This document shows, piece by piece, positions 7,195 to 40,606 of a DNA stretch of 56,246 nucleotides. Under the pieces are notes generated by a model. The model did not search any database. It was given only the letters and a program-made list of their open reading frames with translations, and was not told the origin of the DNA. A program made the translations under genes and the position numbers. Position 1 is the stretch's first letter, and each line of letters starts with the position of its first letter. Origin of the DNA: a virus (taxonomy: Duplodnaviria > Caudoviricetes); IMG/VR virus record IMGVR_UViG_3300029448_000047, positions 1 to 56,246 of that record. One strand, written 5' to 3'.

Positions 7195-7499
7195 TGGGTG
7201 CGTATAAGAATAAAATGTTGGAAGAAATGGATGATGAAGATCACACTGATGAGTATGGTGCTTCCATGGACAATGATGATCCGAAATCTCTATGGGACGA
7301 GGAGGATGAATTTGAAGACAACTTGATCGAAAAGCAGATTGAAGACGAACTTCAAACTCTCGTAGAACTTGAGGCTGATATGAACACGGTTCAGAAGGCT
7401 GCATACGCGCACCTGTCAGAGGGAAAGACGATGGTAAAGGAGCGTATTCTTCTGATCAAAAGTATCATGAGTAACTATAAATATGAGGGGGAAAAGTAA
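7194..7499 (+). CDS. Highly acidic hypothetical protein
   Basis: TAATG coupling on both sides; roughly 29 of 101 residues are D/E. Confidence 0.7.
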   Translation: MGAYKNKMLEEMDDEDHTDEYGASMDNDDPKSLWDEEDEFEDNLIEKQIEDELQTLVELEADMNTVQKAAYAHLSEGKTMVKERILLIKSIMSNYKYEGEK

Positions 7500-8311
7500 T
7501 GGGTAACGCAGTAGCTAATAAAAAAAATGCAGAGTTAAGCACAGATGTTCTTGACGATATCTTTGAAACCGCAGGTGAAGGCTCCTCGTACAGTAGTGAA
7601 GAGATGCAAATCCCTTTTGTTCGGTTGCTCCAGCCTATGAGCCCTCAGATTAACAAGAAAAAGCCTGAGTTTATTGCCGGCGCTGAACAGGGTGATGTTT
7701 TCAACACTGTTACTGGTCAGTATTGGCCCGGTGAAGAAGGTATAAAAGTTATTCCGTGTTATCAAAACACTGAGTACCTAGAGTTTGTACCCAGAGATTT
7801 AGGCGGTGGGTTTAAAGGTAGGGTTCCTCTTGGTGATCCGTTAATTAACCAGACCAAACGCGAGGGAATTAAGGAAATCCTACCCAACGGCAATGAACTG
7901 ATTAAGTCTGATCAACATTACTGTTTGGTTTTAGATGATGACGGTTCCTATCAGCCAGCTATTATTGACATGAAGTCTGCTAGCTTAAAGATCAGCCGAC
8001 AGTGGAAGTCTAAGATTTCTATGCAGAAGGTCCAGCATCCTAAGACAGGACAGGTTGTAAAACCTGCGGTGTTTGCCACAATCTGGCGGTTGCGTTCGGT
8101 TGAGGAAACCAACGATCAAGGTAGTTGGAACAACTGGGCCACGGATCATGTCAGTCTGGTTGAGGATCGTGACCTTCTGATGGCGGCAAAACAATTCCGA
8201 GACTCTATTGTTGCGGGAGAAGTTAAGGCCGCTGCGGATCCCACAGTTAATCCCGAAGGATCTGGCAACGCAACTGGAGCGCCATACAAGGACAATGAAA
8301 TCCCTTTCTAA
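7499..8311 (+). CDS. Putative single-stranded DNA-binding protein
   Basis: Position upstream of primase; acidic C-terminal tail ending DNEIPF, like SSB-Ct. Confidence 0.65.
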   Translation: MGNAVANKKNAELSTDVLDDIFETAGEGSSYSSEEMQIPFVRLLQPMSPQINKKKPEFIAGAEQGDVFNTVTGQYWPGEEGIKVIPCYQNTEYLEFVPRDLGGGFKGRVPLGDPLINQTKREGIKEILPNGNELIKSDQHYCLVLDDDGSYQPAIIDMKSASLKISRQWKSKISMQKVQHPKTGQVVKPAVFATIWRLRSVEETNDQGSWNNWATDHVSLVEDRDLLMAAKQFRDSIVAGEVKAAADPTVNPEGSGNATGAPYKDNEIPF

Positions 8312-8325
8312 AAAAGTGAATAAAG

Positions 8326-8357
8326 AATCGCGCTAGCCGGGTTAGCGCGATTTTTTT
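8326..8357 (+). terminator. Rho-independent terminator between SSB-like and primase genes
   Basis: AATCGCGCTA/TAGCGCGATT stem followed by a T-run. Confidence 0.8.
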
Positions 8358-8367
8358 AGGAGGGATT

Positions 8368-9900
8368 ATGTCTCAAGCAAAAAAGTTAATGGATGCGTTC
8401 TGCGGATCGATAGCGGCGCACGGTACAACCACTGTAGGCAGGGTTGGACGCAACGGCAAAGCCGAGGCGAAGAGTATGATTGTTCGCGGACCTTTGACCG
8501 CTGAGTTAGTACAGGATCACATTGAGGGCCGTCAGGGTGTGGGATCTATACCTATTACCCAAGATAATTTGTGCATGTTCGGGGCTCTGGACATTGATAC
8601 CTATGATCTCAACCTGGTGGAGTTAAATGCCAAGGTTCAAAAGCTAGGGTTGCCCTTGGTGTTGTGTCGTTCCAAGTCGGGCGGCGCCCACCTCTATTTG
8701 TTTCTCAAGCAGTGGGAGCAAGCGGCCATGGTTCGAGAGTACCTGACCGAGATGTCTGTTGCCTTGGGGTTCTCCGGTTGTGAGATCTTTCCAAAGCAGG
8801 ACACTATCTTGGCGGAGCGTGGCGATGTGGGCAACTTTATAAACATGCCGTACTTTGGTGGGGATGTAACCACACGCTATGCCTTGGATAAGAAGGGCGA
8901 AGCTATGGACATGGCGCAGTTCTTTGCTGCGGTTGATGCAGCAAGGATAGACATTCCAGAGTTAAATGAACTTCAGTTTGGTGGAGAGAGAACACACTTT
9001 ACTGACGGGCCGTACTGCTTGGAGATCATTACTGGGCAGGGCTCTGTTACTGAACACCGGAACACGTTTATGTTTAACGTTGGCGTGTACTGCCGGTTGA
9101 AGTGGCCTGACAATTGGAAGAAGCATCACGAAGAATACAACAGGACGTTATGCAGCCCTGCCCTTGAGGCAACTGAGATCGTTGCGTTGCAGAAATCGTT
9201 GATGAAGAAAGAGTACTTCCTGCAATGCAGTGTGTGTCCGTTGAAAGATCACTGTGATGTACAGATCTGCAAGTCGCGTCAGTTTGGTGTGGGCAACTCG
9301 GCCCCAGATCGGGCCAACCTTGGTGGTCTGACAGTCATGTTATCGGAGCCTCGGCATTACTTCATGGATGTAGATGGTCAGCGGCTTCAGCTAACTGTTG
9401 AGCAATTGCAGAACCAAGGTCTTTGGCAGCGGTCATGCATGGAGCAACTCAACTTCATGCCGCCTCAAGTTAAGCCACAAGATTGGCAGGTTGCAATCAA
9501 CACCCTGATGAAGAACTCGGTCACCATAGATGTGCCTCCGGAACTCACGATCAAGGGGCAGTTCCATGAGATGCTCAAGACGTTTTGCACAAGTCGGATT
9601 AGGGCTTTGTCTCCGGAAGAAATGGAGATGGGCAAGCCTTGGACCGAGGACGGCGTGACGTACTTTACGATGGCTGGCTTGGAACAGTTTCTCAAGAACA
9701 GGCAGTTCACACATTACAAAGCGGTTCACATACAGGAACAGTTAAAGGCTTTGAACGATGGAGGAGATTGCCACCAGCAAAAGTATATTAAAAGAGAGAA
9801 CGGAAAGTCTAAAAAGTTACGTGTCTGGCATGTGCCGGCATTTGAAGATGAAGAAATAGAACTGGAACCAAAGGAGTTTAGTGATGACATCCCCTTCTGA
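8368..9900 (+). CDS. AEP-superfamily DNA primase / primase-polymerase
   Basis: GALDID (DxD), SKSGGAHLY (sxH motif), EIFPKQ, downstream Cys cluster; AGGAGG SD. Confidence 0.8.
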   Translation: MSQAKKLMDAFCGSIAAHGTTTVGRVGRNGKAEAKSMIVRGPLTAELVQDHIEGRQGVGSIPITQDNLCMFGALDIDTYDLNLVELNAKVQKLGLPLVLCRSKSGGAHLYLFLKQWEQAAMVREYLTEMSVALGFSGCEIFPKQDTILAERGDVGNFINMPYFGGDVTTRYALDKKGEAMDMAQFFAAVDAARIDIPELNELQFGGERTHFTDGPYCLEIITGQGSVTEHRNTFMFNVGVYCRLKWPDNWKKHHEEYNRTLCSPALEATEIVALQKSLMKKEYFLQCSVCPLKDHCDVQICKSRQFGVGNSAPDRANLGGLTVMLSEPRHYFMDVDGQRLQLTVEQLQNQGLWQRSCMEQLNFMPPQVKPQDWQVAINTLMKNSVTIDVPPELTIKGQFHEMLKTFCTSRIRALSPEEMEMGKPWTEDGVTYFTMAGLEQFLKNRQFTHYKAVHIQEQLKALNDGGDCHQQKYIKRENGKSKKLRVWHVPAFEDEEIELEPKEFSDDIPF

Positions 9901-10102
9901 ACAACGAAAGCTGCTGAAGATTGCGGAAATAACCGAGTGGTTGGGGGTATCCCATTCCACCATTTACAAGTGGGTAAGCGAGGACATCTTTCCACAGCCC
10001 ATATATCTTGGACCGGGCAAGGGCGATAAGAACAGCGCCACCCGTTGGGTCGAGGAAGAAGTTCTGGAGTGGCTAGCTCAACGTCCACGCGGTAAAGAGT
10101 GA
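9881..10102 (+). CDS. AlpA/excisionase-like HTH DNA-binding protein
   Basis: LLKIAEITEWLGVSHSTIYKWV...FPQP...RWVEEEVLEWL matches the AlpA pattern. Confidence 0.85.
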   Translation: MMTSPSEQRKLLKIAEITEWLGVSHSTIYKWVSEDIFPQPIYLGPGKGDKNSATRWVEEEVLEWLAQRPRGKE

Positions 10103-11622
10103 TGTCCGAGGAGATGCTTTTAGGTCCGCCTGGGTGTGGTAAAACGTACAGCCTTATACAGCGCGTACAAGAAGCCCTTGAGGACGGTGTTGACCCTGAA
10201 CAGATAGGGTTTATGTCCTTTACAAAGAAGGCCGTACAAGAGGCCGTTGAGCGGTCGTGTGGCAAGTTTGGGTTTGACGAGAAACGTCTGCCTTACTTCC
10301 GCACCCTGCACTCGATTGGGTTCCGCGCTTTGGGGCTAGTATCTGGTGACATGCTAGCCAAGGACGATTGGCGCAAGCTGGGTCATGGTCTGGGTTTGTC
10401 GTTTGATAATGCAGAAGGCGCCGCACCTGATGACGGCATCCTGATCCCTGCCATTGGTGGTGACGGCGGCAAGTACATTCAGTTGATCGACCGGTCCAGG
10501 TACAGGTTGATTGCAATGGAGCAAGAGTTCAACGAGGCTGAGGATTGGGATCTATCGTTTCCAAAGATGAAGCAGATCGAGGTCAGTGTTGCTTTGTACA
10601 AAAGCAAGTTCGGTAAGATGGACTTCGTTGATTTGATTGAACAGTACCTGAACGTAGAACCACCGTACTTGAAGCTGCTGATTGTGGACGAGGCCCAAGA
10701 CCTTACTCCCTTGCAATGGGAGATGGTGGATCACATGAAGGCCAACGCGGAGAATGTGGTGTATGCAGGGGACGATGACCAAGCCATTCACCGATGGACC
10801 GGCGTTGATGTTAATCGTTTTATCAACGCGACAGACAACAAGACAATCCTATCACAGTCGTACCGGTTGCCTCGGGCCGTTTGGTCTTTGTCTCAGCAGG
10901 TTGTAAAGCGGATCGACAACCGGATTGAGAAAGAGTTTCTACCCATGGAGGAAGAAGGCTTGGTTGAATACCACCTAAGCCGGCACACAATTCCGTACCA
11001 CAAGGGTTCGTGGACAATCATGGCTAGAACCAACAGTTTTGTGCGTGAGTTTGCAGAGTCTTTAAGGGAAGACGGATACCTATACAGTGTTAAGGGTCGG
11101 CCTTCTATCAACCCAGATGCAGTAGATGTGATCATTGCTTGGCGTGATCTACAAGCAGGTAACCCTCTGTCGCTGCGCCGCGTTAAGAAGATGTATGCGT
11201 CTGTACCAAAGCAGGGGGACTATGCTGTTGTAAAGCGGGGCTCTGCTAGATTGCTAGACGCTGCGGATCCAGAAGCGATGTTGGATTACGAAACCTTGGT
11301 GCGTGATTATGGAATGATTGCTCCGTTATATACGGATGCAATGGATGTGGCACGGTTTGGTAGGGAACAGAAGCTATACGTTCGGTCAATTGAAAGGCGC
11401 GGGGAAGATCTCACCAAGACCCCGCGCCTTAAACTATCGACGTTCCACGCTATGAAGGGAGGAGAAGACGACAATTGCGTGGTGTATTTAGGTATACCAA
11501 GAGTATGTGCAGAAAGCAAGCACCCAGATGATGAGCATCGGGCATTCTATGTGGGCATAACACGCGCCCGAAAAGAATTGCACATACTAGATACAGATAA
11601 GAGGTATAAGTACCAGCTATGA
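10099..11622 (+). CDS. UvrD/Rep-like SF1 DNA helicase
   Basis: GPPGCGKT, DEAQD, GDDDQAI, QSYR, TFHAMKGGE, YVGITRA. Confidence 0.93.
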   Translation: MMSEEMLLGPPGCGKTYSLIQRVQEALEDGVDPEQIGFMSFTKKAVQEAVERSCGKFGFDEKRLPYFRTLHSIGFRALGLVSGDMLAKDDWRKLGHGLGLSFDNAEGAAPDDGILIPAIGGDGGKYIQLIDRSRYRLIAMEQEFNEAEDWDLSFPKMKQIEVSVALYKSKFGKMDFVDLIEQYLNVEPPYLKLLIVDEAQDLTPLQWEMVDHMKANAENVVYAGDDDQAIHRWTGVDVNRFINATDNKTILSQSYRLPRAVWSLSQQVVKRIDNRIEKEFLPMEEEGLVEYHLSRHTIPYHKGSWTIMARTNSFVREFAESLREDGYLYSVKGRPSINPDAVDVIIAWRDLQAGNPLSLRRVKKMYASVPKQGDYAVVKRGSARLLDAADPEAMLDYETLVRDYGMIAPLYTDAMDVARFGREQKLYVRSIERRGEDLTKTPRLKLSTFHAMKGGEDDNCVVYLGIPRVCAESKHPDDEHRAFYVGITRARKELHILDTDKRYKYQL

Positions 11623-12461
11623 ATAGAGAAGATTTACTAGACGATGCGTGGAGCAAGATCAACGGGGATCGAGAAGAAGAATACGGCGATGTATATAACA
11701 GTTTCACCACCATATCTTTGGGATGGGACATAATTACGAAGAACGCTCTCGCCACGCATGGGTGTGTAAGCCCAATGCATGTTGGTCTGATGATGGATTG
11801 GCTGAAGACGAGCCGGCTGTTGGTGAACATAAACCATGAAGATTCGTGGATCGATAAGATTGGGTATTCCGCCCTGTCTGCGGAGGTTGCAGATGAGTAT
11901 AACGATAGGGTTGAAGAGGTTGGAGAGGATGAAGACAAGTCATTAGAAGAGCTTCTTCAGGAGGTTCCACCAGAAGGAGTGGTGGTGGAGATAGAGATAG
12001 AGGAAGAGCCCCCTGTTTGGGATGGTACGATTCAAGATGTGGAAACAAAGAAATGGGTGAATGAAGCAACGAATTATGCCAAAGAGTTTGCCGAGCGAGA
12101 AAAGAAATACTTGGCTGAAAAAGGTGTTCTTGAAGTTTATAAAGAGCTTTTAAAGATTGCTACGTTGGACGAATTAGATGCCATGGCGAAGTATTCTCCT
12201 GAACCTAGGCCCATGACCCGCAAGCGTTTAGCCGCATACCTAGAGCCGGGTCTTAATGAATTGTTCGGCACTGAGTATGATCCATACGTTGAGCCAAAGA
12301 CATGTCAGAAGATTGATGGTCGCAACGGCAAGCCTTGTGGGCTCCCGTTAGTTGGTAGACAAAAGAAGTTTTGTAGTAAGCACGTTCCAAAGAGTACCAA
12401 AGCAGCAAGGAAAGCCTATGGCAAGAGATCGAAAAGACAAGTCAACGATCAACTATCTTGA
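11619..12461 (+). CDS. Multidomain protein: DUF6378-like N-terminus, acidic linker, capsid-N-terminus-like peptide, Cys/His zinc finger
   Basis: INGDREEEYGD...KTSR...DSWIDKIGY pattern; LEPGLNELFGTEYD; C-x10-C...FCSKH; basic tail. Confidence 0.75.
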   Translation: MNREDLLDDAWSKINGDREEEYGDVYNSFTTISLGWDIITKNALATHGCVSPMHVGLMMDWLKTSRLLVNINHEDSWIDKIGYSALSAEVADEYNDRVEEVGEDEDKSLEELLQEVPPEGVVVEIEIEEEPPVWDGTIQDVETKKWVNEATNYAKEFAEREKKYLAEKGVLEVYKELLKIATLDELDAMAKYSPEPRPMTRKRLAAYLEPGLNELFGTEYDPYVEPKTCQKIDGRNGKPCGLPLVGRQKKFCSKHVPKSTKAARKAYGKRSKRQVNDQLS

Positions 12462-14328
12462 TCGGATGGACATTGACCGGTTAGATCCTGATTGGAACAT
12501 ACCAACAGAGTACCCTGATCTAACAGGATACAAGTCTATCGCAGTTGATTTGGAAACAAGCGATCCAAACCTCAAGTCTCTCGGACCCGGTTGGGCCCGA
12601 GGGGATGGTTTCATCGTGGGCATTGCTGTAGCTGCAGGAGATTACAAAGGCTACTTTCCCATACGTCACCAGAACGGACACAACCTAGATCCCAAGATGA
12701 CCATGCGGTGGTTTGCAAAGCAGATGGATACTCCGCGGATCGACAAGATCATGCACAACGCCACGTATGATGCCGGTTGGTTGCAAGCGGAAGGCATCGA
12801 GGTAAAGGGTCGGATTATTGATACCATGATTACCGGAGCTATTGTGGATGAGAACCGGTTTTCCTACAGCCTTAATAATCTAGGCCGTGATTGGATCGAC
12901 ATGCGGAAGGACGAGAAGGCCCTTCGCGCAGCGGCCCGTGATTGGGGGTTTGATCCTAAGTCCGAGATGTGGCGCCTACCTCCGATGGACGTTGGACCCT
13001 ACGCGGAACAGGATGCTTTAATGACGCTCAAGCTATGGGAGCGGTTGAAGATAGAGGTGGAGAAGCAAGACCTCTGGGCCATATGGGAATTGGAAACAGG
13101 GCTCATTCCTCTCATGCTTAAAATGAAAACCAATGGCGTTAGAGTAAACATCGATCAAGCAGAGCAGGTTCGGAAAGAATTGAAGGGCCGAATCACCGGG
13201 CTAAAGAAATCCATTTGTGATGAGACAGGTGTGGACCTTGAACCATGGGCCGCGGCCTCTGTTCAGAAGGTCTTTGATTCACTGGGCTTGGAGTATGCAC
13301 AGACTGCGGCTGGCAATGCTACCTTTACCAAGCAGTTTTTAAACCTGCACCCTCACCCTGTAGCACAACAGATCGTTAAGCTGCGGGAGTTTGATAAGGC
13401 CGACAGCACGTTCATCGACACCATCCTGCGTCACTCACACAAAGGCAGGATCCACTGCGAGTTTCACCAACTCCGGAGCGATGACGGCGGTACAGTTACG
13501 GGTCGTTTCTCATCGTCCAACCCTAACCTTCAGCAAATTCCTGCACGGGACAAAGACATTAAGAAGATGATCCGCGGATTGTTTATCCCCGAAGACGGAT
13601 GCAAGTGGGGTTCGTTTGATTACTCTAGCCAAGAGCCACGGTTGTTGGTTCACTTTGCGGCTAGCTTGAATGACGATCACCGGCATCAGATGGTGGATGG
13701 TATTGTTGATGAGTGGCAAACCAAGGACATCGATCTGCACCAGATGGTTGCTGACATCGCTGGCATTGATCGGAAGTCTGCAAAGACTGTGAACCTAGGG
13801 ATTATGTACGGCATGGGTAAGGCCAAGCTAGCAGACCAGTTGGACATTAGCGTAGCCGAGGCCACCACACTGCTTCAGACGCACCAGAGCAAGGTGCCTT
13901 TCGTTAAGGGGCTAGCGGAGATTGCAAGCACTCGCGCCTCTCAGAAGGGCTCTATACGCACTCTGCTAGGCCGTAGGTGCCGGTTTGATCTGTGGGAGCC
14001 TAGAACGTTTGAATACAACAAGCCACTGGCTCTAAAGGACGCACAAGAAAAGTACGGGATGTACCTGCGTAGGGCGTTTACATACAAGGCGCTGAACAAG
14101 CTGATCCAAGGATCCGCTGCGGACCAAACCAAGAAGGCCATGGCTGATTGCTATGCCGAGGGATTAGTTCCTATGCTCACGGTCCATGATGAACTATGCT
14201 TTTCTGTAGAAAGCCAAAAGCAAGCCTCTAAGATAACCGAGATCATGGAGACAGGCTTATCACATATACTCAAGGTTCCGTCTAAGGTAGACGAGGAACT
14301 CAAGGACAACTGGGGAGAGATAGAATGA
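12418..14328 (+). CDS. polA: DNA polymerase family A (3'-5' exonuclease plus polymerase)
   Basis: Exo DLET/HNATYD/YAEQD; TGRFSSSNPNLQQIP; motif A DYSSQEPR; motif B KTVNLGIMYG; motif C VHDE. Confidence 0.96.
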   Translation: MARDRKDKSTINYLDRMDIDRLDPDWNIPTEYPDLTGYKSIAVDLETSDPNLKSLGPGWARGDGFIVGIAVAAGDYKGYFPIRHQNGHNLDPKMTMRWFAKQMDTPRIDKIMHNATYDAGWLQAEGIEVKGRIIDTMITGAIVDENRFSYSLNNLGRDWIDMRKDEKALRAAARDWGFDPKSEMWRLPPMDVGPYAEQDALMTLKLWERLKIEVEKQDLWAIWELETGLIPLMLKMKTNGVRVNIDQAEQVRKELKGRITGLKKSICDETGVDLEPWAAASVQKVFDSLGLEYAQTAAGNATFTKQFLNLHPHPVAQQIVKLREFDKADSTFIDTILRHSHKGRIHCEFHQLRSDDGGTVTGRFSSSNPNLQQIPARDKDIKKMIRGLFIPEDGCKWGSFDYSSQEPRLLVHFAASLNDDHRHQMVDGIVDEWQTKDIDLHQMVADIAGIDRKSAKTVNLGIMYGMGKAKLADQLDISVAEATTLLQTHQSKVPFVKGLAEIASTRASQKGSIRTLLGRRCRFDLWEPRTFEYNKPLALKDAQEKYGMYLRRAFTYKALNKLIQGSAADQTKKAMADCYAEGLVPMLTVHDELCFSVESQKQASKITEIMETGLSHILKVPSKVDEELKDNWGEIE

Positions 14329-14528
14329 TGGAAGATAAGATTGATACCGTAGGGCTTAAAGAGATGCATCCCATGCAGGTTCAAGCCCTGTTGAAAGTGG
14401 TAGATATAACTATGCGCCTTGCTGTCTGTTCAAACGATGACGCTATCATCGAGGATGTGACAGAACACGTTAACGATATGATCCAGTTGTTCGGTGGTCT
14501 TGGTGTGAAGGTCGATGTTATGGATTAA
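14325..14528 (+). CDS. Hypothetical protein
   Basis: ATGA coupling with polA; converges on the late operon. Confidence 0.6.
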   Translation: MMEDKIDTVGLKEMHPMQVQALLKVVDITMRLAVCSNDDAIIEDVTEHVNDMIQLFGGLGVKVDVMD

Positions 14529-17500
14529 GCCGGCGCTGTATCTCTTGGTCCTGCGGGTTAGGCAATACCGTAGGGCCTGGGGGCAGGGTGGGTAGTGCGG
14601 GGATTGGAACGCCACCAAATCTATTACCTGTAGGAGCCGTGACGGGAACGCCACCAAATCTATTACCTGTAGGAGCCGCAGGCACAGGCGCTGCTTCTAA
14701 CTGAGTATCAAGGTTAGGAGCCCGGACATCTGGGTTGTCATCGGGCGCAAGAGAAGCGCCACGCATTAACTTTCTAATCTCATTTATTCTTTTGTTTACA
14801 AGCCTAAACTCGTCTTGAGTTCCTGCCTTACGCATTTCTTTGCGGTTCTTGGAGCTAACTTTAAACGGATCAAACTGTCCACGCATAACCTTACGGGCGC
14901 TAGAACCAATATTGCTATCCTTTAATACTCTACGCATTTCGCTGTCGGACAAACCCATGGCCCGGAGATCCTCAAACATCTGGTAGTATCTCTTGTCGTT
15001 CCGCAGCTTTGCCTCATTACCTTTAATGAACGCATCCACAAACTCCGATGCAGTGGTTCCAGAGTCATCGGCCACCCTGTTAAACATCTGCTTTGCTTCG
15101 GTTTGACCGCGTTGAAAACGGTAGCCCCCAAACTCTAATCCTTTCTTAGGGTCAAACTCTAGAGTGCTTACGCCAGATCCAGCCCTGATTAATTCAGTTA
15201 GTAGTGTTCTTTCGCGGCCAAACTTATCTTCAGACTTAATTCCAAAGAAAGTTCCTTCCTCTGTTCCTACCAGCCCACGGGAGAACCTGCCTGCCACGGG
15301 AGCGCCACCTTTAAAGTCCATTGGTAAAAAACCAGGCATCATGGTGTTTGCCACATGCATAAAGGATTTAAAGCCCTTGGTCAGGTTAGAATCAAGAGAG
15401 TTAAATATTTGAGCGCCAGACTTTGTTCTTCCGTTGTTCCGACTAGCCGCATTGTATACGTCAATCGCCGCTTCAGTTATGATAGCCTCATCCATAAACG
15501 GAGCAAAGAACTCACCCATCGTGGAGAACATAACGTTAGTTACTGCATCCGCGGGATCTTGGCCTTCCTTAATAGCCTTATCACCCTCGTTCATAGCACG
15601 GTTCATAAACCGAGTTAGAGTATCATATGGGTTCAACGTACTGTAGTTGACGTACTGGATCTTACCGTCTTCATCTTTTCCAACAGGCACTAGGACCGCG
15701 CCCTTTTCCCACTGTGGAGCAAAGGATCTTTTGTATGCTTTCATCTCTTCTCGGTCTACACCTGAGAACTGGTACGCCGCCTCTACCGCAGCGACAGGTG
15801 CAGCTATGGTCGTTGCACCAAAGCTCATCAGCCTGTTACGTCCTCTAGCCTCTATTGCGGGGATGCCTGAGTACATATCATCCAAACCCTGTTGAACAAT
15901 GTTAAACCCAGTACGCAGTATCTCAGCAGGGAAGGTAATGAAGTTACCAAACGGCAACCGGCGCCCAAACTTAACTAGCTCCGAAGCACCCTTGGTATAG
16001 TTTGGTAGTGTATCTCTGACGATCTGGGCAGCGCGGTGCTTTAACAACTCTTTGTAGGCATCTTTGCTAGGGGTCATGCTTAAATCAAGAGGTACATCAG
16101 TTCCGTTTTTGGTCAGATACTTTATCGCAGTTTTTTCATCTACTGTGTCTAACGCCTTAGCTAGCTTCATCTCCTCAGCGGCATAGCTCATAAACTTCAT
16201 GACATCATCGCCGCCTTGGTATAGCCCTTCAGCGTAATACCCTGCTTTACCAAATGCCTTTGCTACCTTTGATTTTGCGGCAAGACCCGCTGCTTTTTTA
16301 CCAAGCAACCCTTCTATTGCAGTGCTTGGAGCATCGCTTGCTCGATCAATACCCTTACGCAGGGCGTCTTGTATTTCTCTTAACTCTGCATTCGTGCCAA
16401 TGACCCCACGGTTTTGAGCGTCCATAAGAAGTTCAAGAACCCGGTCATCGCCGCCCTTAAATATGTTGGCAGCAACTAATTTAAAAGCATCTGCGGAACT
16501 GGCGCCACGGCCCAAAGGTGCGTAAGGAAGGTTGCCATTAGCAAGCATAAAGGCATGACCAGTTGTAAAGTTACGCACCATCGTAACAGGAGATAGAATT
16601 GTTTTAGAGTATTGAGATAAGGCTTTGCCTCGAACAAACGTGTTTAAAGCGCCTTGAAATAGTTGTGTTGCGGCATCTGCCTCAGACCACACCTTGTTTG
16701 TCAGGCTGTTATAGATATCCTCGGGAACGTAATACCCATCAAGAGATCCCCACCCAGAGCGGCTGATCATCTCATCCAGTTTCTTTACATCTTGTATTGC
16801 TGCGGGGCCAGCCATGGATCCAATGCCACCTTCGCCGCCAAGCTGGACGTAACCCTTGTTCTTTAATGCTGTTTTTGCTGCTTCAGATGTGACCTTTTCA
16901 GGGCCAATAAACAAGCGGCCAATACCGTCATTGTTTTTAGCCATGTTTGCAACCGATGTTTGCATACTATCAACGGCCGTAAACTGCGCTAGGTCCGCTA
17001 TTGTTTTTAGGTAAGCCTCTCTGGGATCCGTTACCTCTCCCATTAATCTGCGTAACTCGGGAGCTATCTTCTTCCGTTGGATAAACATACCAGTATCCAA
17101 GCGGTCCTTAGCTACACGCCCTGCGCCCTTCTTGGCAGTGGATCTGTTAAGTACTCTGTATTGGTCGAGAAAAGCATCTCTTGCTTTTTTTGCTACTTCG
17201 TCAGTAACTTTTCCGCCAACAGTAACTTTAAGATCGTCACCTCCGCCAGACACCGTTAAGCCATTTCGTTTTATAAAGTCATCAGTAAACAGGGTATTGT
17301 TGATGTCTGCTTTTTTAATTTCTGACAACATCTTTTCTGTGAGTTTATCGTTTCGTTTAAAATACATCCTTGCAACATCAAGTGTTTCGTCATCTGGAAT
17401 ATACTTAGAGTCTTGAAATACTTTAAAGTCTCTCCGCAAGTATTCCTCGGAACCTTCGTTTAAAACTTCGTTAAACGTTTTGCCTAGGTCTGGGATTTCA

Positions 17501-18672
17501 GTCTCTCCAAGACCGCCTTTAACAAAGCCAGACTCGGGAACTAATTTAGCTAAACTATTGCGATGATCCGCCATCTTCTTTGCGGGGTTCCGCAGTTCTT
17601 TTGGAAGAGCCGATAGTGCCTTCGCTGCCTTGTCTCCTGAATTAGTTAAGTAAGCATAAAGATTGTTTGTTATGTTAACTTCTTCTAACTTTGATTTGTC
17701 TTTGGGCATTTTACTGAAGAATGCCTTACTAGCCTTGTCCAAATCATTTAGGTTTCTTTCGCCTTGTGAAACAGCAGTGCGAACTTGAGCCTCTACACCA
17801 AGTTGTTTTTCGGCCACGGCCCTAGGTAAAAATCCACCGTAACGAGAGGCTGCAATTAAATCTATCGCCTTGTTTTTAAATGTCCCAAACTCTTGTCCGG
17901 GTTCCGCGGTCATCTTTTTAACAAGGGTGTCTTCTATTTTTGTCCCAAGGTTAGACAGACCCTGTTGTAACTCTCTGCCAGTGCCTGTTTTCTTTAATTG
18001 ACCAAGGGTCTTGCCCAACCCAGCAAAGGCACCGGTTACTGCACCGCCAATCAACCCACCTTCAAGACCTATTTGTGTGCGTTTTGCCAAACGCAACAAA
18101 GCCTTGTTAGTTCCTGTCTCACCTACTAGATCGGAAGCATCTTGAGGCAGGCTATCAAACACATCAGCAATAACTGTGTTGTTATCATTGGACACCACAA
18201 AGTCTACGCCGCCCATAGCTGCGGCTTCTTGAGCCCCAAGAACTAGCTTTTCTTTTCCGGTCAATGCTCTCTTGGCTTTGGTTGCGGCTTGAACAGCTTT
18301 AGAACCTTTAGCCACGGCTCCTGCTACACCAAGCCCTGGTATTACAAACTGCCCTGTGACCTCGCCTATTGTTCCAGCAAAACCCTCCGGATCAATACCC
18401 ATGTCATCTTTAAATTCTTGAAAACTTTGGTTGAGTTTGGTTGTGGTGTCTGTCCCTGCTACAGCGTCTTTAAGTGTTGTTCCTAAACCGATTACGCCCT
18501 CAACTGCTCCAAGCCCTCCGGACAATAATCCTTCGCCCAGTTCTTTTGCTATTGAACCTTCAAGGAACGGACGATCTTCTTCTTCCACATCAACAGGGAC
18601 ACCTCCAAAACGATTTGTTGTTTCAACTTTTTGGGATACCGGTATTCCACCGAAACGATTTGTTTCTGCCAT
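14518..18672 (-). CDS. Large internal virion / DNA ejection protein (putative)
   Basis: 1384 aa, last gene of the late operon after tail and pilot genes; Ala/Gly-rich hydrophobic segments; NRFGG repeats at both termini. Confidence 0.65.
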   Translation of the reverse strand: MAETNRFGGIPVSQKVETTNRFGGVPVDVEEEDRPFLEGSIAKELGEGLLSGGLGAVEGVIGLGTTLKDAVAGTDTTTKLNQSFQEFKDDMGIDPEGFAGTIGEVTGQFVIPGLGVAGAVAKGSKAVQAATKAKRALTGKEKLVLGAQEAAAMGGVDFVVSNDNNTVIADVFDSLPQDASDLVGETGTNKALLRLAKRTQIGLEGGLIGGAVTGAFAGLGKTLGQLKKTGTGRELQQGLSNLGTKIEDTLVKKMTAEPGQEFGTFKNKAIDLIAASRYGGFLPRAVAEKQLGVEAQVRTAVSQGERNLNDLDKASKAFFSKMPKDKSKLEEVNITNNLYAYLTNSGDKAAKALSALPKELRNPAKKMADHRNSLAKLVPESGFVKGGLGETEIPDLGKTFNEVLNEGSEEYLRRDFKVFQDSKYIPDDETLDVARMYFKRNDKLTEKMLSEIKKADINNTLFTDDFIKRNGLTVSGGGDDLKVTVGGKVTDEVAKKARDAFLDQYRVLNRSTAKKGAGRVAKDRLDTGMFIQRKKIAPELRRLMGEVTDPREAYLKTIADLAQFTAVDSMQTSVANMAKNNDGIGRLFIGPEKVTSEAAKTALKNKGYVQLGGEGGIGSMAGPAAIQDVKKLDEMISRSGWGSLDGYYVPEDIYNSLTNKVWSEADAATQLFQGALNTFVRGKALSQYSKTILSPVTMVRNFTTGHAFMLANGNLPYAPLGRGASSADAFKLVAANIFKGGDDRVLELLMDAQNRGVIGTNAELREIQDALRKGIDRASDAPSTAIEGLLGKKAAGLAAKSKVAKAFGKAGYYAEGLYQGGDDVMKFMSYAAEEMKLAKALDTVDEKTAIKYLTKNGTDVPLDLSMTPSKDAYKELLKHRAAQIVRDTLPNYTKGASELVKFGRRLPFGNFITFPAEILRTGFNIVQQGLDDMYSGIPAIEARGRNRLMSFGATTIAAPVAAVEAAYQFSGVDREEMKAYKRSFAPQWEKGAVLVPVGKDEDGKIQYVNYSTLNPYDTLTRFMNRAMNEGDKAIKEGQDPADAVTNVMFSTMGEFFAPFMDEAIITEAAIDVYNAASRNNGRTKSGAQIFNSLDSNLTKGFKSFMHVANTMMPGFLPMDFKGGAPVAGRFSRGLVGTEEGTFFGIKSEDKFGRERTLLTELIRAGSGVSTLEFDPKKGLEFGGYRFQRGQTEAKQMFNRVADDSGTTASEFVDAFIKGNEAKLRNDKRYYQMFEDLRAMGLSDSEMRRVLKDSNIGSSARKVMRGQFDPFKVSSKNRKEMRKAGTQDEFRLVNKRINEIRKLMRGASLAPDDNPDVRAPNLDTQLEAAPVPAAPTGNRFGGVPVTAPTGNRFGGVPIPALPTLPPGPTVLPNPQDQEIQRRLNP

Positions 18673-18682
18673 GGTCTTGCCT

Positions 18683-19846
18683 TTATGGTTTTTTCAACAA
18701 GGTATCGCCGTCATAGTACTCTGAGCCGCTAGGAAGAGCGTCAAATTCTTCTTGAGTATTTATTGAAGGAGGGGTTCCCGCGCCGCCACCACTCGCAGGA
18801 GCCGCTGCCCCACCGCCTTGATTTGCAAACAAGTCATTAGCCATAGATAGTCCTTGCGTATATGCTTCTTCAGCATCAAGACCTTGTTTAATTAACTCTG
18901 CGGTAAACCTTGCGGCAACATCCGAAAATGGTTCTGCTTTAGAAAAAGCTCCTCCTGCCCCTGTCCGAGGCGTCAACGCTGCCTTCAGTCTCAACAGGCG
19001 CTCTGCTTCAGCGTTAGCCAACGCAGTCTTCTGAGCATCAGCCTCAAGAGCCATCTGAGTACCTTGCGCTTTGCCCATGGCTCTACCAAAGGCAGACGCG
19101 GCTCTGGGATCTTTGTCCGCGGCCATGCCAAAGAATGCCTCAGACTCCGCCATCTTGCCAAGATCACCCCTGACCTGTTTAAGTATTTTAGGAAGAGAGT
19201 TCTTAGGATTTATTTTAGGAAGTCCTAACTTAGAACTCACTTTATCCATTTCTGCTTTTAAAGGTTTGTCAGGGTCACCACCCCCCATGACAATTAAAGA
19301 TTTCGCTTTGCCAGTATCATCCACATCCGGATCATCAATGACCCCAATAGCTTGAACCACGGTCCCTGCAAGCTGGGTAATGTCTATTTGACCAAAGGGA
19401 GTTTCTTCCTCATAGACAGCATTCATTGGCCCCATAGGAGTAGTCTCTCCACCTTCCTGCATAGTCTTAACACCAGGGCGCATAGGATTAAGGTTAGGTT
19501 GCGGCTGTGGCTGTGGCTGTGGTGCTTGGGCCATCTGTTGTGGAGGAGGGGCCATGGGCATTGGTGCAGGAGGTGGTGCCATAGGCATAGGCATAGGCAT
19601 AGGCATAGGCATTGGTGCGGGGGCCATGGGCATACCATCGGCTCTTCCCGCGCTCATACCCTTAGCGACATCCATAGGTATGGCTGAGGTTTCCGGTCTG
19701 CGAACCGACTTCATCGCCTCATCAATCAAGGGTTGGCTGGATGCAAGTATGCCCGAAGGCTGATCGGCCCTAGCCAGTTGGTTAAGCCGCGTCCGAGCGC
19801 CATCCTTGCGTTGAAACAACCTCCGATTAAAGACCTCATTCTGCAT
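18683..19846 (-). CDS. Putative internal virion/ejection protein with Pro/Met-rich linker
   Basis: Position; MPMPMP and PQPQP low-complexity segment. Confidence 0.6.
   Translation of the reverse strand: MQNEVFNRRLFQRKDGARTRLNQLARADQPSGILASSQPLIDEAMKSVRRPETSAIPMDVAKGMSAGRADGMPMAPAPMPMPMPMPMPMAPPPAPMPMAPPPQQMAQAPQPQPQPQPNLNPMRPGVKTMQEGGETTPMGPMNAVYEEETPFGQIDITQLAGTVVQAIGVIDDPDVDDTGKAKSLIVMGGGDPDKPLKAEMDKVSSKLGLPKINPKNSLPKILKQVRGDLGKMAESEAFFGMAADKDPRAASAFGRAMGKAQGTQMALEADAQKTALANAEAERLLRLKAALTPRTGAGGAFSKAEPFSDVAARFTAELIKQGLDAEEAYTQGLSMANDLFANQGGGAAAPASGGGAGTPPSINTQEEFDALPSGSEYYDGDTLLKKP
19580..19612. repeat. In-frame hexanucleotide microsatellite (CATAGG)x5
   Basis: Encodes the MPMPMPMPMPM tract. 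Confidence 0.85.
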
Positions 19847-19858
19847 AACGTTGATCCT

Positions 19859-20944
19859 TTAACTATAACCGGAGAAGTTTTGATAGGCCCCAAGCCCCAT
19901 TGTATTACCTAAAACAGCGTTAAGTGGGCTGGGTGATGGCACAGTGGTTTGCGATAAAGTGCTGCTAGTAGACGGAACGCCACGGAAGATGTCAGACATG
20001 TAGCTAAATCTTCTAAAAGGCTCGTAAGCCTGTTCCATTTGTCCTTGCCGCTGCACATCAAATTCACGTTGCTGCTGCTGTTGCTCCAACGACCCGATGT
20101 TATAGAGCGCATTGACATCACTCTGTGCGGATGTCTGTGCTAGATTTCCTAATGCCGCTTCCCTAGCCCCCAAGCTAGCGATACCTTGGCCCAGTTGCCC
20201 AAAGATCTGGCTGGCCTGTTGGCCGCGGTTCATCTGGTTTTCAAAAGCAGACATGCCCTTGTTTGCCAAATCACTGCCCATGTTTACGATGCCCGTAGCA
20301 GCCCGACCTTCTCGAGCTAATTGATTTTCAAAAGCTTGGCGTCCACTTTCATAACCACTTCGACGCAGTTGCCCTGCTGTCCTGGCAGATTGTTCTAAAA
20401 TATCCCTGTTAAGCAAAGCGTTTTCTACAGCAAAACGAGATCCACCAAAAGCTCCCGCTCCAGCTGCGGCTCCACCAATTTGAGTGGCACGTTCTTGTCC
20501 CGCCTTTTGAATGTCAGCCAACGCCTGTTGAACAACGGCATCTTCATATGGGTTCATGTACTGATCGGCGCTATCTGCAAAGGTACGGGTTGTTCCGCGC
20601 AGTCCTTCTTGCCCCTCGGTCACATCACCAGCATAGCCGCTTAGATCAAAACCACCCATGGTTCCGCCTAATGCAGAAACACCAGAGCCATATGCTGTTC
20701 CCGCTGTATCGAAACTAGCCTCTGCCTCCCGCATCATGGGCTCGTAGGCGCCAATCCCTGCCCGACCAAGGCGGATTGCCTCTAGCTGGTTTGGAGTAAA
20801 CTGCATGACATCAGGTGCCGCTACATCTCCTAAAGGGGAAGTTTTACTTATATCTGTAACGTTAGCCAGCAGGTCTTTCAGATACTTCTCTTGGTACTCC
20901 GGAAGAAATATCCCACTTAACTGAGTTTGTGTCTGATCAGCCAT
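19859..20944 (-). CDS. Putative DNA pilot/ejection protein
   Basis: Gln/Ala/Gly-rich helical protein with YMNPY and GAFGGSR motifs typical of podovirus ejection proteins. Confidence 0.7.
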   Translation of the reverse strand: MADQTQTQLSGIFLPEYQEKYLKDLLANVTDISKTSPLGDVAAPDVMQFTPNQLEAIRLGRAGIGAYEPMMREAEASFDTAGTAYGSGVSALGGTMGGFDLSGYAGDVTEGQEGLRGTTRTFADSADQYMNPYEDAVVQQALADIQKAGQERATQIGGAAAGAGAFGGSRFAVENALLNRDILEQSARTAGQLRRSGYESGRQAFENQLAREGRAATGIVNMGSDLANKGMSAFENQMNRGQQASQIFGQLGQGIASLGAREAALGNLAQTSAQSDVNALYNIGSLEQQQQQREFDVQRQGQMEQAYEPFRRFSYMSDIFRGVPSTSSTLSQTTVPSPSPLNAVLGNTMGLGAYQNFSGYS

Positions 20945-26622: not shown

Positions 26623-28128
26623 CTACGCAGCGATATCTGTCCAAGACGGAGTTTGTGAGGGGGTTATACTAGAGAACCCCGAAGATTGCGAAGGAGTTAT
26701 ACTAGAGAAATTAGACGTTTGATCTGGTTCAATCTTTGACCAAACCAAAACATTTCCTACTTCCGCCGTACCAACAACGCCTGTGACAGAAACAGGGTTG
26801 TCAACGCTAGCGGTAGAAGAACCAACTGCTCCTGTAGCTGCTATGCCCGTGACGGGTACATCTACATCAATTTGAACTATGGGCGATCCTACCGCACCTG
26901 TACCAGAAACCCCTGTAACCGATAGAGTGCTGTCTGCAGTAATTGAAGTGGTTCCAATAATTCCTGTAGCTGCTACGCCTGTAACAGCAATATTCGCGGT
27001 AGATTTTGTCGTAGTGGAACCAACCGCACCCGTGCCTGCTACGCCTGTAACCGATATGTCTGCAGAAGAAGTAGTCGTAGTGGAACCAACCGCACCCGTG
27101 GCAGAAACTCCCGTGGCAGAAACATTTGCGTCACCACTAACACCGCCGCCGCCCACAAAAAGACCGTCAGTAAACGCTTGAAGCGCCTCACCCATTATAA
27201 CGGGAACATCGGAATCTATTGTTACAGAAACGCCTCCAACAGAACCCGTGGACGAAACTCCCGTGACAGAAATGTCTGCACCGCTAGTGGTAGAAACACT
27301 GCCCACGGAGCCTGTAGCAGCAACTCCCGTAACAGGAACTGTTGCTCCAAGAGTAGTTATCGCGGAACCTACAGAACCTGTAGATGCAATACCTGTAACG
27401 GACAAGACAGAGCTGCTTACGATGGATACAGAGCCCACAGAACCCGTGGCAGCAACACCTGTAACACCTATATCTAAATCTGTAGTAGTAGCCACGCCAC
27501 TTACAGCACTTGTACCAGCAACACCCGTAACGGATATGTCAGCAGTGCTGGTGGTAGTAACAGCACCAACGCCACCCGTGGCGGATACTCCTGTCGGAGT
27601 GACAGTTGCAAAACCTGTAACGGTAGGGGAACCAACCGCACCTGTACCAGAAACACCCGTGACATTATTGATTACAGCAGTAGTAGTAGTGGCTGAACCA
27701 ACAGCGCCTGTGGCAGAAACACCCGTGACGGAAATGTCCGCAGTGCTGGTTGTGGTGACAGAACCAACAGCGCCTGTACTAGAAACACCCGTAACAGATA
27801 TATCCGCCGCACTCGTGGTAGTCACACTACCAACAGAGGCCGTCCCAGAAACACCTGTGACAGTAACAGAAAGACCGCTTGTAGTTGTTACACTACCAAC
27901 AGAGGCCGTCCCAGAAACACCTGTGACAGAAATGTCCGCCGCACTTGTAGTCGTTACACTGCCAACAGAACCTGTACTAGAAACACCCGTAACAGATATA
28001 TCCGCTGCGCTTGTAGTCGTTACACTACCAACAGAACCTGTTGCAGAAACACCTGTAACAGATACTTCTGTGGAAAACGTAGCTGAACTAGCTAGTGGCG
28101 CAGCGCCAAGAGGAGAAAAGCCCAGCAT
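26623..28128 (-). CDS. Repetitive structural protein (22-aa SVTGVSxTGxVGSVTTT repeats)
   Basis: About 20 tandem 66-bp units; Thr/Ser/Gly/Val-rich. Confidence 0.8.
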   Translation of the reverse strand: MLGFSPLGAAPLASSATFSTEVSVTGVSATGSVGSVTTTSAADISVTGVSSTGSVGSVTTTSAADISVTGVSGTASVGSVTTTSGLSVTVTGVSGTASVGSVTTTSAADISVTGVSSTGAVGSVTTTSTADISVTGVSATGAVGSATTTTAVINNVTGVSGTGAVGSPTVTGFATVTPTGVSATGGVGAVTTTSTADISVTGVAGTSAVSGVATTTDLDIGVTGVAATGSVGSVSIVSSSVLSVTGIASTGSVGSAITTLGATVPVTGVAATGSVGSVSTTSGADISVTGVSSTGSVGGVSVTIDSDVPVIMGEALQAFTDGLFVGGGGVSGDANVSATGVSATGAVGSTTTTSSADISVTGVAGTGAVGSTTTKSTANIAVTGVAATGIIGTTSITADSTLSVTGVSGTGAVGSPIVQIDVDVPVTGIAATGAVGSSTASVDNPVSVTGVVGTAEVGNVLVWSKIEPDQTSNFSSITPSQSSGFSSITPSQTPSWTDIAA

Positions 28129-38565: not shown

Positions 38566-39471
38566 TTATACGCCAGGAGATCCAAAAACGCAACGAGGAT
38601 CTGAGAACCCAAACGAGTAACGCTCACGGGCTTTAAACCGCATGTTACCAGTGTCGAAGTCCGCTTCCATGTTGGTTGAAAGAGGCGTCCGCTCAAAGTG
38701 GATAAATCCACGGGGAGCATCGGTCAGAACAAAAAACGCATCGGGGTCATTGAGAAAGTCGTTAACAGCATAACCGCTGGGCAACATTCCCATAGATCTC
38801 ATTGCATTTGTGTCATTGTCCGCAGTACCCGAACGAAGGTTGGAAGCGAGGATCCGCTCTGCAACAAACTGTAGTTGCCGTGGGATAATCATCTTCAAAC
38901 CACGAAGAGCAACCTTCAGACCACGCTCATCAACGAAACCAGCGATGTTGATAAGAGCGTCCTCAAGAGAGGTTTCGTTCAGATCAGCGGCTGACACGTT
39001 GTTAAGAGTTCCACCGTTAGTCAGTGGGTGGGCTGCGGAACAAAGTGCAACACCGTCACCTCCCGCTGAAGCACCCGCAGTAAACGCATTGTTAAGAACC
39101 GCAGCGGCTTTAACTTGCTTACTGTGAGCCATCGAACGAGCAAGGGCTTTGGTGTAGCGAGATCCAAGACGATCATAGAGATTGTCCTCGATTGCTTCTT
39201 CCGTAATCGAAAAGGCCAACGCCAGAGTTTCGTGATTGTAACGAGCGGTGTACGCTTCGTTGGCATCATCGTAACTTACATTGCTGCCCTCTGCCTTAGT
39301 GGGCGCAGCGCCAAATCCACTCAACATAACTTCCTCCTCGAACGCTCTGTCCGAAGATTCTGTTGTGTAGATTTCTGCGTGTTGACCTTCGTATCGGTCG
39401 TATTCCATTCCAAACAGTGCGTTCAGGCCGGGTTCTAGCTCTTTCGCTAGTTGTGCGCGAGAAATAGCCAT
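38566..39471 (-). CDS. Major capsid protein
   Basis: MAISRAQLAKELEPGLNALFG...SDRAFEEEV...RERYSFG..DPR; followed by a strong terminator. Confidence 0.88.
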   Translation of the reverse strand: MAISRAQLAKELEPGLNALFGMEYDRYEGQHAEIYTTESSDRAFEEEVMLSGFGAAPTKAEGSNVSYDDANEAYTARYNHETLALAFSITEEAIEDNLYDRLGSRYTKALARSMAHSKQVKAAAVLNNAFTAGASAGGDGVALCSAAHPLTNGGTLNNVSAADLNETSLEDALINIAGFVDERGLKVALRGLKMIIPRQLQFVAERILASNLRSGTADNDTNAMRSMGMLPSGYAVNDFLNDPDAFFVLTDAPRGFIHFERTPLSTNMEADFDTGNMRFKARERYSFGFSDPRCVFGSPGV

Positions 39472-40147: not shown

Positions 40148-40606
40148 TTATTCGGACCCGCTTCCGCGACCTCCGAAAGTTACACGGGATTGCCGGTTAT
40201 TACTAATCGGCATTGAAGGATGTTGCTCCTTCATTAAGTCAGAATCTACAGCGACCATTTGATCTCGGGTCCGTAACCCGTAGTAATCGGCTCGTTCTTT
40301 CGCTGTTTCTTCAGGCAGTCTGCAAAGCATTAGTCCACCGTTACCGATTATCCCTGAATACTGACCCTCATCTATTGTGGGGTACGCACGGTCGGGGTAC
40401 TCATCTGCGCGAACAGGTTCCCATCCTTCGCGAAGTTTGGCATAGACATTAGTCTTGTCTTCCTCACCACGCATGGATATTCGGATCCATCGTTGCACAT
40501 AACCCACCGGGGGGTCGGGAGCCTCTAATCGTTGGGGCGGAGCCCATGGTTTACGCCGCTCAGTATTTTCGCGAGTTGAGCTTTCTCGAGTTTTTCTTTC
40601 AGCCAT
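40148..40606 (-). CDS. Conserved head-region protein
   Basis: WAPP...RWIR...REGWEPV...GGLMLC pattern. Confidence 0.7.
   Translation of the reverse strand: MAERKTRESSTRENTERRKPWAPPQRLEAPDPPVGYVQRWIRISMRGEEDKTNVYAKLREGWEPVRADEYPDRAYPTIDEGQYSGIIGNGGLMLCRLPEETAKERADYYGLRTRDQMVAVDSDLMKEQHPSMPISNNRQSRVTFGGRGSGSE

Follow-up and report, generated by a model that had tools for sequence, protein, structure and literature searches.

The DNA analyzed here, called the window throughout, is the whole 56,246-bp IMG/VR record IMGVR_UViG_3300029448_000047, a phage genome that is complete or nearly so (CheckV completeness, 95%). Its replication genes form the left arm on the plus strand, and its structural genes lie on the minus strand. 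At 11619..12461 (+) in the left arm is the gene for P0001, a protein of 280 residues in which a DUF6378 domain, a linker, a copy of the N-terminal arm (N-arm) of the phage's own major capsid protein (MCP), a CCCH zinc finger, and a basic tail follow one another. An AEP-type primase (8368-9900, +) and, as the immediate neighbor, a UvrD-type helicase (10099..11622, +) are encoded upstream. Downstream is PolA, a family A DNA polymerase with a 3'-5' exonuclease domain (12466..14328, +). All three were recognized with Pfam and PHROGs. We read the PolA ATG at 12466 by eye, and it is in frame with the listed open reading frame (ORF) 12352-14328. The start of P0001 overlaps the helicase stop, and its own stop comes 4 nt before the PolA ATG. 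Thus, P0001 is integral to the replication operon.

P0001 belongs to the DUF6378 family (PF19905; 67.7 bits against a cut-off of 27.1) through residues 6 to 91 (11634..11891, +). All 30 of its atlas matches were DUF6378 clusters, the top three scoring 0.94 to 0.95. We took the "phosphofructokinase" label that DUF6378 relatives bear in PHROGs and GenBank to be unverified annotation. An acidic linker follows at residues 96 to 198 (11904..12212, +); it is variable and full of indels in the alignment of P0001 with its homologs (alignment A1). The capsid-like segment, which we call the motif, occupies residues 199 to 223 (12213..12287, +), with the core LEPGLNxLFGxEYxxY at residues 208 to 223. Behind it lie the zinc finger, C229-x10-C240-x11-C252-x2-H255 (12303..12383, +), whose ligands are invariant in A1, and a Lys/Arg-rich C-terminal tail (residues 256 to 280; 12384..12458, +) that is nearly invariant there. 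P0001 fell below the threshold for the zf-primase/Mcm10-type finger (PF09329; 18.9 bits against a cut-off of 28.8, E = 0.0013); we take the ligand spacing to resemble that of Mcm10.

The MCP gene lies at 38566..39471 (-). Its product of 301 residues matched Phage_capsid_4 (45.2 bits; cut-off, 27) and phrog_371 (major head protein). The AlphaFold2 (AF2) model of the MCP (pLDDT 69.8) has the HK97 fold, and Foldseek matched it to the capsids of a gene transfer agent, T5, and HK97 and to encapsulins. P0001 is not a paralog of this protein: it had no Pfam capsid match (Phage_capsid_4, PF25209), and its similarity to the MCP is confined to residues 199 to 223. Sequence searches of the PDB returned nothing for the MCP and noise alone for P0001. 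The AF2 model of P0001 was poor (pLDDT 43.9), and we used it for secondary structure alone. It places a helix at residues 201 to 215, in the same register as an N-terminal helix at residues 5 to 19 of the MCP, both at low confidence. We also considered an internal start at M199, which would give a free N-arm/zinc-finger protein, and rejected it in general, since I or L occupies that position in most variants.

A segment of P0001 matches the capsid N-arm at the protein level

Residues 199 to 223 of P0001, MTRKRLAAYLEPGLNELFGTEYDPY (12213-12287), align without gaps to MCP residues 3 to 27, ISRAQLAKELEPGLNALFGMEYDRY (39391..39465, -), the source-type sequence of the motif, with 16 of 25 residues identical. 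The match scored 37.0 bits, with an E value of 2e-7 in pairwise BLASTP and 2.1e-5 when the phage's own 56-kb record was searched. We compared 284 window ORFs of at least 50 residues (34,785 residues) with one another by BLASTP and found the P0001-MCP pair to be the seventh best non-self pair (E = 2.3e-5, or roughly 6e-3 after correction for about 284 queries). The pairs ranked above it were three true paralog pairs, one common tail fiber module, and two pairs of plus-strand ORFs that overlap minus-strand tail-fiber-like genes and are probably not genes. A chance match is further excluded because homologs of P0001 match the window MCP at 22 to 23 of the 25 positions.

The DNA of the two segments is much less alike: 46 of 75 bases are identical, and the codon is the same for just 3 of the 16 identical residues. 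First, second, and third codon positions are identical in 19, 19, and 8 of 25 cases, respectively. Thus, with 8 of 25 third positions identical, the synonymous sites are saturated. The preliminary description of this locus had reported the gapless match, its mostly different synonymous codons, the order of domains around it, and the replication-operon setting, and we found all four to be correct.

Most homologs of P0001 retain the motif under constraint

In metagenomes, the homologs of P0001 form 66 clusters, which we refer to as family 1. The zinc finger is kept in all 66, and the core LEPGLNxLFGxEY is kept in 55. Some of these copies are closer to the capsid protein than that of the window; ISRAQLAAELEPGLNALFGMEYDPY is identical to the window MCP at 23 of 25 residues, and others are identical at 22 of 25. 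Within the linker, repeated GRVSPD... units and Glu/Val blocks differ in copy number among otherwise near-identical proteins (alignment A1), a pattern that suggests repeat-mediated slippage or recombination.

The arrangement is restricted in its distribution. Among cultured phages (the "phages" collection), we found neither the fusion nor a second copy of the motif. There, the DUF6378 third of P0001 alone matched 297 records, none covering at least 80% of the protein, and the C-terminal third matched the N termini of six related MCP genes, noise, and nothing else. A megablast search with window positions 8000-20000 gave no match. A HMMER search with P0001 residues 190 to 280 against 1.84 billion representatives returned 3 family representatives and 8 weak matches, placing the motif-plus-finger module in family 1 alone; we checked 5 of the weak matches, which proved to be WD40-repeat proteins in four cases and a zinc-ribbon repeat protein in one. 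More distant relatives encode a stand-alone DUF6378 protein of 97 to 119 residues directly upstream of PolA (26 of 50 loci translated). Therefore, it was in the window's clade that the linker-motif-finger extension arose.

We estimated dN/dS (the ratio of nonsynonymous to synonymous substitution rates) by the Nei-Gojobori method, pooled over 23 distinct genes from loci that were picked by DUF6378 patterns, independently of the motif. One motif-less sequence (L026) was kept in the alignment and can only raise the dN of the motif. The ratio was 0.26 for the DUF6378 domain, 0.74 for the linker, 0.32 for the whole motif, and 0.23 for the zinc finger and tail; the pairs are phylogenetically nonindependent, and these are descriptive ratios rather than tests. 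Within the motif, the N-terminal half (residues 199 to 207) had a ratio of 0.77, close to that of the linker, and the core (residues 208 to 223) had a ratio of 0.15.

A second, unrelated protein carries the motif in a sister clade

We searched larger related records with the MCP and found an additional copy of the motif in G010, a 55.7-kb record with terminal repeats and a completeness of 100%. Its MCP is 74% identical to that of the window, and its DUF6378 gene stands alone. The terminal repeat (C1:3-98 and 55608-55703) includes codons 1 to 32 of the MCP gene, which puts the break point of the assembly inside the capsid gene. The additional copy is in a 158-residue protein that consists of an AlpA/HTH_17-like domain (residues 5 to 60), the motif at about residues 86 to 107 (...APITSAELAKELEPGLNALFGKE...), an acidic stretch, and a hydrophobic C-terminal helix. 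This protein matches its own MCP at 17 of 21 residues (E = 4e-8), with 5 codons the same and third-position identity of 8 of 21, and it matches a family-1 member at 18 of 22 residues (E = 3e-9). It passed the threshold of the Phage_AlpA family marginally (21.2 bits; cut-off, 21) and fell below that of HTH_17 (24.3 bits; cut-off, 27). The window itself encodes an AlpA-like helix-turn-helix ORF of 73 residues (9881..10102, +), without the motif or a membrane tail, that is 33% identical to residues 3 to 61 of the G010 protein (E = 4.4e-4).

Homologs of the G010 protein make up 54 clusters in the protein database (family 2). PF12728 or PF05930 was precomputed for 39 of them, and 53 have the hydrophobic C-terminal tail. 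In a survey of 50 related records, additional copies were present in four (G010, G013, G015, and G018), all from one clade; the MCP copy alone was present in 35, and the sequence surveyed held no match in 11. Each fully read genome with an additional copy has one: the window has it on the DUF6378 protein and G010 on the AlpA-like protein.

A pattern scan of IMG/VR for P-x-T...EPGLN gave 113 matches, of which 74 were MCPs, 20 were family 1, 14 were family 2, and 5 were due to chance. There was no third motif-bearing architecture among them, and none appeared in a word-index search of proteins of 491 to 2000 residues, which is weak evidence. The preliminary description had argued that the peptide itself is conserved, without recent DNA duplication. 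That argument is borne out by the saturated synonymous sites and by the core dN/dS of 0.15 next to 0.74 in the linker. It had also held that the idea would fail if homologs lacked the peptide or let it decay neutrally and if no other phage had a copy outside the MCP; the motif is kept in 55 of 66 family-1 clusters, and the sister clade has a copy on a different protein.

Residues invariant in capsid N-arms are kept in the copies

We scanned IMG/VR for the pattern LEPGLNxLFG and found at least 120 loci, all in MCP context. Among the matches listed, 108 of 120 were full-length ORFs of 280 to 330 residues with the motif at residues 12 to 21; the others were cut by contig ends or filtered out, and none was in a zinc-finger context. 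The 118 distinct MCP N termini among these matches have R5, L12, E13, P14, G15, L16, N17, L19, F20, G21, and Y24 invariant and E23 (113/118) and Y27 (117/118) nearly so. Thus, in this abundant marine phage group, the N-arm, which comprises about 27 residues from the MCP N terminus, hardly varies. None of the residues just named (R5, L12-N17, L19-G21, E23, Y24, and Y27) varies among the 15 distinct family-1 peptides.

An MCP subtype that starts MPITRAQLAKELEPGLNALFGLE (MPITRAQL..., against MAISRAQL... in the window) accounts for 62 of the 74 MCP matches of the P-x-T...EPGLN scan (for example, L335, L343, L346, L354, and L372). The family-1 variant KPITRAQLAAELEPGLNALFGTE matches this MPIT-type MCP at 20 of 22 residues. 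Thus, the copied segment starts at MCP residue 2.

We asked whether recent gene conversion from the MCP gene could account for the copies and ruled it out. The best identities were 59/75 across 126 MCP N-terminal DNAs, among the matches listed, and 49/66 for MPIT-type MCPs. No family-1 peptide DNA exceeded 59/75 to any MCP DNA among the matches listed, and MCP genes are on average identical to one another at 54/75. Third codon positions are saturated as well, and recent gene conversion is therefore excluded. As far as these sequences go, the motif is a portable, optional element at the protein level, and a DNA repeat is excluded.

A candidate partner and other genes of the window

By its capsid protein, the phage belongs with the HTVC023P-type marine podoviruses. 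The window MCP is 71% identical to the capsid protein of Pelagibacter phage HTVC023P and 57 to 68% identical to the MCPs of HTVC027P, DSL-LC04, Planktothrix phage Pag-Yong1, and Roseobacter phages CRP-901/902. HTVC023P-type pelagiphages are widespread, and the capsid of vSAG 37-F6 was placed among them (PMC9599517). The minus-strand structural set comprises a large terminase, a portal, a GroES homolog, a scaffold-like protein, two proteins without an assigned function, and the MCP.

The scaffold-like protein, P0069 (40610..41509, -; 299 residues), has an acidic N terminus, a Gln/Ala-rich middle, and a basic, conserved C terminus of about 30 residues. It matched no Pfam scaffolding family or any other Pfam family, and its PHROG, phrog_28737, has no assigned function. 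Homologs adjoin MCP genes in 89 loci, and the C terminus is their best-conserved part. They are 30 to 48% identical to the window's protein over most of its length and share a near-constant basic end, ...VxLTPSQVAIAKKLGVPLEEYAKYVKE. These basic C-terminal residues are complementary in charge to the N-arm core, which is acidic and hydrophobic. A single co-fold of residues 180 to 299 of the scaffold-like protein with P0001 residues 190 to 232 scored 0.00, which gives no verdict and is not evidence either way. Directly upstream of the scaffold-like gene is the gene for the GroES (Cpn10) homolog (41490-41957, -; 40.8 bits; phrog_3188), and HTVC023P has a GroES homolog at the same position. Two conserved proteins without a Pfam match are encoded between the scaffold-like and MCP genes: an Ala/Gly/Thr-rich protein of 214 residues (39487-40131, -; phrog_37556) and a protein of 152 residues (40148-40606, -; phrog_36003).

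Elsewhere in the window, we noted a Pam3 gp34-like protein (7499-8311, +; 213.6 bits), an SU10 adaptor-like protein (35300-35965, -), a member of a ferredoxin-labeled PHROG (42177-42851, -), and a peptidase M15 endolysin (43075-43527, -). Three tandem paralogs of about 370 residues each (29251-30360, 30364-31479, and 31483-32598, all -) are 35 to 46% identical to one another (E = 1e-57 to 2e-64). Residues 1 to 100 of a 501-residue protein (26623-28128, -) match residues 74 to 167 of a tail-fiber-like protein of 265 residues (34501-35298, -) with 49% identity (E = 4e-9), and this common segment looks like an attachment module.

The motif as a possible docking tag

By alignment, an old, protein-level copy of the MCP N-arm sits in a flexible linker of each of two DNA-binding proteins, which are unrelated and belong to sister clades. 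Read in the same way, the copy, from MCP residue 2 or 3 on, is one that was captured long ago by nonstructural genes, and the capsid-invariant residues R5, L12-N17, and L19-G21, with the near-invariant E23, are kept in it under purifying selection. These residues are strictly kept in family 1, and some family-2 members vary (M12 or P16). Constraint on the same residues in capsid and carrier makes it probable that the copy and the capsid N-arm have a common binding partner.

That partner is known in two other phages. In 80alpha, a C-terminal "helix-and-hook" of the scaffold touches the helix of the capsid N-arm (PMC5644958). In SPP1, the scaffold binds the N-terminal helix of the MCP, and the N-arm, once released, goes on to pair antiparallel with that of an adjacent capsomer (PMC6813328). 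By analogy, the partner here would be the scaffold C terminus in the procapsid and, after maturation, neighboring capsid subunits. Since the N-arm partner in both solved cases is the C-terminal helix of the scaffold, we tentatively propose, at somewhat less than an even chance, that the motif is a docking tag that would tether DNA-bound early proteins to the partner of the N-arm, most likely the scaffold C terminus or the shell. A carrier that is associated with the replisome (family 1) or anchored in the membrane (family 2) would thereby be held to scaffold/MCP assembly intermediates. Head assembly might then be placed beside the DNA that awaits packaging, or, for the soluble family-1 protein alone, the carrier might be loaded into proheads. 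The fuller statement, in which the N-arm is a portable linear motif that docks DNA-bound early proteins to the scaffold or procapsid and so couples phage DNA to head assembly or loads the head, we consider somewhat doubtful. The preliminary description had offered three uses for the peptide: a decoy for a capsid-sensing defense, a tag joining a DNA-binding protein with the scaffold or prohead, and a feedback sensor between replication and head assembly. The tag appears to us the best fit of the three.

Several observations weigh against docking. The motif is dispensable: it has been lost through two independent clean deletions in family 1, and 32 of 54 family-2 clusters lack it or have it in decayed form. 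In family 1, it is absent from 11 of 66 clusters. Seven of these have the deletion type ...KKWIN|DPY..., and four have the type ...VAEY|DPY..., in which the segment between two Glu-Tyr pairs is gone (P0066, among these four, has additional upstream changes). One motif-less cluster was found on 11 contigs. The strict core is present in 22 of the 54 family-2 clusters; 9 have degenerate versions (for example, LQPRITALF and LKPRLTTLF), and 23 are without it. G012, whose MCP is 90% identical to that of the window, had no additional copy in its available DNA, and neither did G001, G002, or G051 (completeness, 98 to 100%); most relatives are short contigs, so that the absence is firm for these last three near-complete records alone. 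The family-1 copy is also not a perfect mimic of the MCP, since family 1 has A or T in place of K10, which is found in 117 of 118 MCPs, and since T replaces the L or M of MCPs at position 22 in 13 of 15 family-1 peptides; the MCP values are for the matches listed. The copies keep P-x-T at positions 2 to 4, where the window and G010 have A-I-S in their cognate MCPs. Thus, the covariation of copy and MCP that the preliminary description suggested looking for does not occur at these positions in the two genomes in which we judged it; the IMG/VR contigs with the fusion gene, of at most 26.9 kb, stop short of the MCP gene, and the longest metagenome contig is 31.6 kb. The product of 40610-41509 is itself a putative scaffold, called so from its composition, its position upstream of the MCP gene, and its conservation alone. 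Finally, loading into the head cannot fit both families, because a tail-anchored family-2 protein is unlikely to be capsid cargo. Since natural motif-less variants exist, docking would be an accessory function.

The constraint pattern common to the MCP and the copies and the precedent of the N-arm/scaffold contact would serve equally well if the motif were a brake or timer of assembly, competing with the true N-arm and holding scaffold or MCP back on the DNA or membrane until there is enough MCP. The position of the carriers in the replication arm, on the strand opposite to the structural genes, fits such a role, and the differences at K10 and position 22 could tune affinity. However, a brake gives no reason for DNA-binding carriers, and the motif is dispensable in many lineages; we regard this explanation as unlikely. 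Much the same probability attaches to a capsid-independent role in which the amphipathic, self-pairing N-arm was co-opted to dimerize or oligomerize DNA-binding proteins. Dimerization modules are common next to DNA-binding domains, and the motif lies in a linker beside such a domain in both carriers. Read from the sequence, the hydrophobic residues L8, L12, L16, L19, and F20 are spaced as one face of a helix, and the antiparallel pairing of N-arms from adjacent capsomers of SPP1 (PMC6813328) points the same way. A generic dimerizer, however, has no need of the exact E13-P14-G15, N17, and G21, which are kept across saturated synonymous divergence, and a self-pairing helix would pair equally with the abundant N-arms of the MCP late in infection.

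A third party might instead read both contexts, namely a factor, from host or phage, with an action on nascent MCP as well, such as GroEL paired with the phage GroES, a different chaperone, or a protease. The GroES homolog gene just upstream of the scaffold-like gene and the place of the motif at the extreme N terminus of the MCP, the first part to leave the ribosome, speak for it. Yet Pfam and PHROGs recognized no protease among the 20 window proteins scanned, we found nothing that points to a chaperonin reading a specific linear motif, and the DNA-binding carriers are left unexplained; we rate this rather improbable. The decoy idea, that an early copy saturates or mis-triggers a host sensor of the capsid N terminus, draws on the existence of capsid-sensing defenses such as CapRel, which a major capsid protein is reported to activate (PMC9712102). 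The copies do lie in the nonstructural arm, and the patchy presence of the motif resembles that of accessory counterdefense genes. However, an activating peptide that is made early would more likely trigger a sensor than block it, and neither the DNA-binding carriers of both families nor the membrane anchor of one is accounted for. Our results lend the decoy no support, and we think it a long shot. Least credible of all is a relic or chance origin, in which a leftover of illegitimate recombination with the 5' end of the MCP gene is carried in a tolerant linker. The linker is plastic and tolerates large indels, the motif has been cleanly deleted twice, and it has decayed in part of family 2. 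Against this stand the dN/dS of the core relative to the surrounding linker (0.15 against 0.74), the retention of capsid-invariant residues despite saturated synonymous sites, and the presence of the motif in two unrelated carriers with pairwise E values of 2e-7, 4e-8, and 3e-9.

Comparison with known systems

The nearest parallel to a docking tag is the capsid targeting sequence (CTS) of T4, a short peptide common to otherwise unrelated proteins that directs them to the scaffolding core and hence inside the prohead (PMC3012670). The motif here is likewise a short peptide on otherwise unrelated proteins. The CTS is an N-terminal leader that is removed by the prohead protease, and it is not known to be a copy of the capsid protein. 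In contrast, the motif is internal (199 to 223 of 280 residues and about 86 to 107 of 158) and copies the MCP's own N-arm; in neither carrier family does it have the N-terminal position of a T4-type CTS. One carrier here is membrane anchored, and targeting is a proposed role. A Pfam and PHROGs scan of 20 window proteins found no protease family.

CpmB of the satellite SaPI1 mimics the C terminus of the 80alpha scaffolding protein (PMC5644958). In both cases, one side of the scaffold/N-arm interface is duplicated on another protein that engages, or here would engage, the assembly machinery. However, a parasitizing satellite copied the scaffold's side there, whereas here the phage's own early genes carry the capsid's side. 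Cargo-loading peptides of encapsulins are short, dock cargo onto an HK97-fold shell, are usually C terminal, and are unrelated in sequence to the shell protein. Encapsulins are among the Foldseek neighbors of the window MCP model, but the peptide here is paralogous to a part of the shell protein. Thus, the T4 CTS, SaPI1 CpmB, and the encapsulin peptides all differ from a capsid protein's N-arm copied onto nonstructural proteins.

In Lit/Gol, a capsid peptide is the recognized trigger of a defense. Lit/Gol and CapRel (for the latter, PMC9712102) resemble the present case in that a capsid protein or peptide is the recognized element. They differ in that they are host sensors of the real capsid protein rather than phage-encoded additional copies, and the literature that we searched held no description of a phage-encoded additional copy of a sensed capsid peptide. 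The small early protein p16.7 of phi29 has a DNA-binding domain and a single membrane anchor and is thought to organize phage DNA at the membrane. Family 2 shares this membrane-anchored, DNA-binding layout, a likeness that we draw from description alone, although its topology and fold are unlike those of p16.7. We know of no capsid-derived motif in p16.7. Our search of open-access full texts, which covered the articles themselves, found no description of a capsid N-arm copy on nonstructural proteins.

Implications

Few viral proteins in the sea are as abundant as the HTVC023P/vSAG 37-F6-type capsid. The same residues on two unrelated DNA-binding proteins offer a handle on the partner of its N-arm, and the preserved motif hints at a link between the replication or localization of the genome and the assembly of the head. 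If the motif proves to be a true regulator or decoy, self-mimicry of this kind, inside one phage genome, would form a new class. If it is a true docking tag, HK97-fold shells would have in it a naturally occurring capsid-targeting peptide of very small size, useful for loading cargo into phage-derived nanocontainers. For these phages, such docking would mean that replicating or membrane-tethered DNA is coupled to assembly and packaging, a coupling not yet described for tailed phages.

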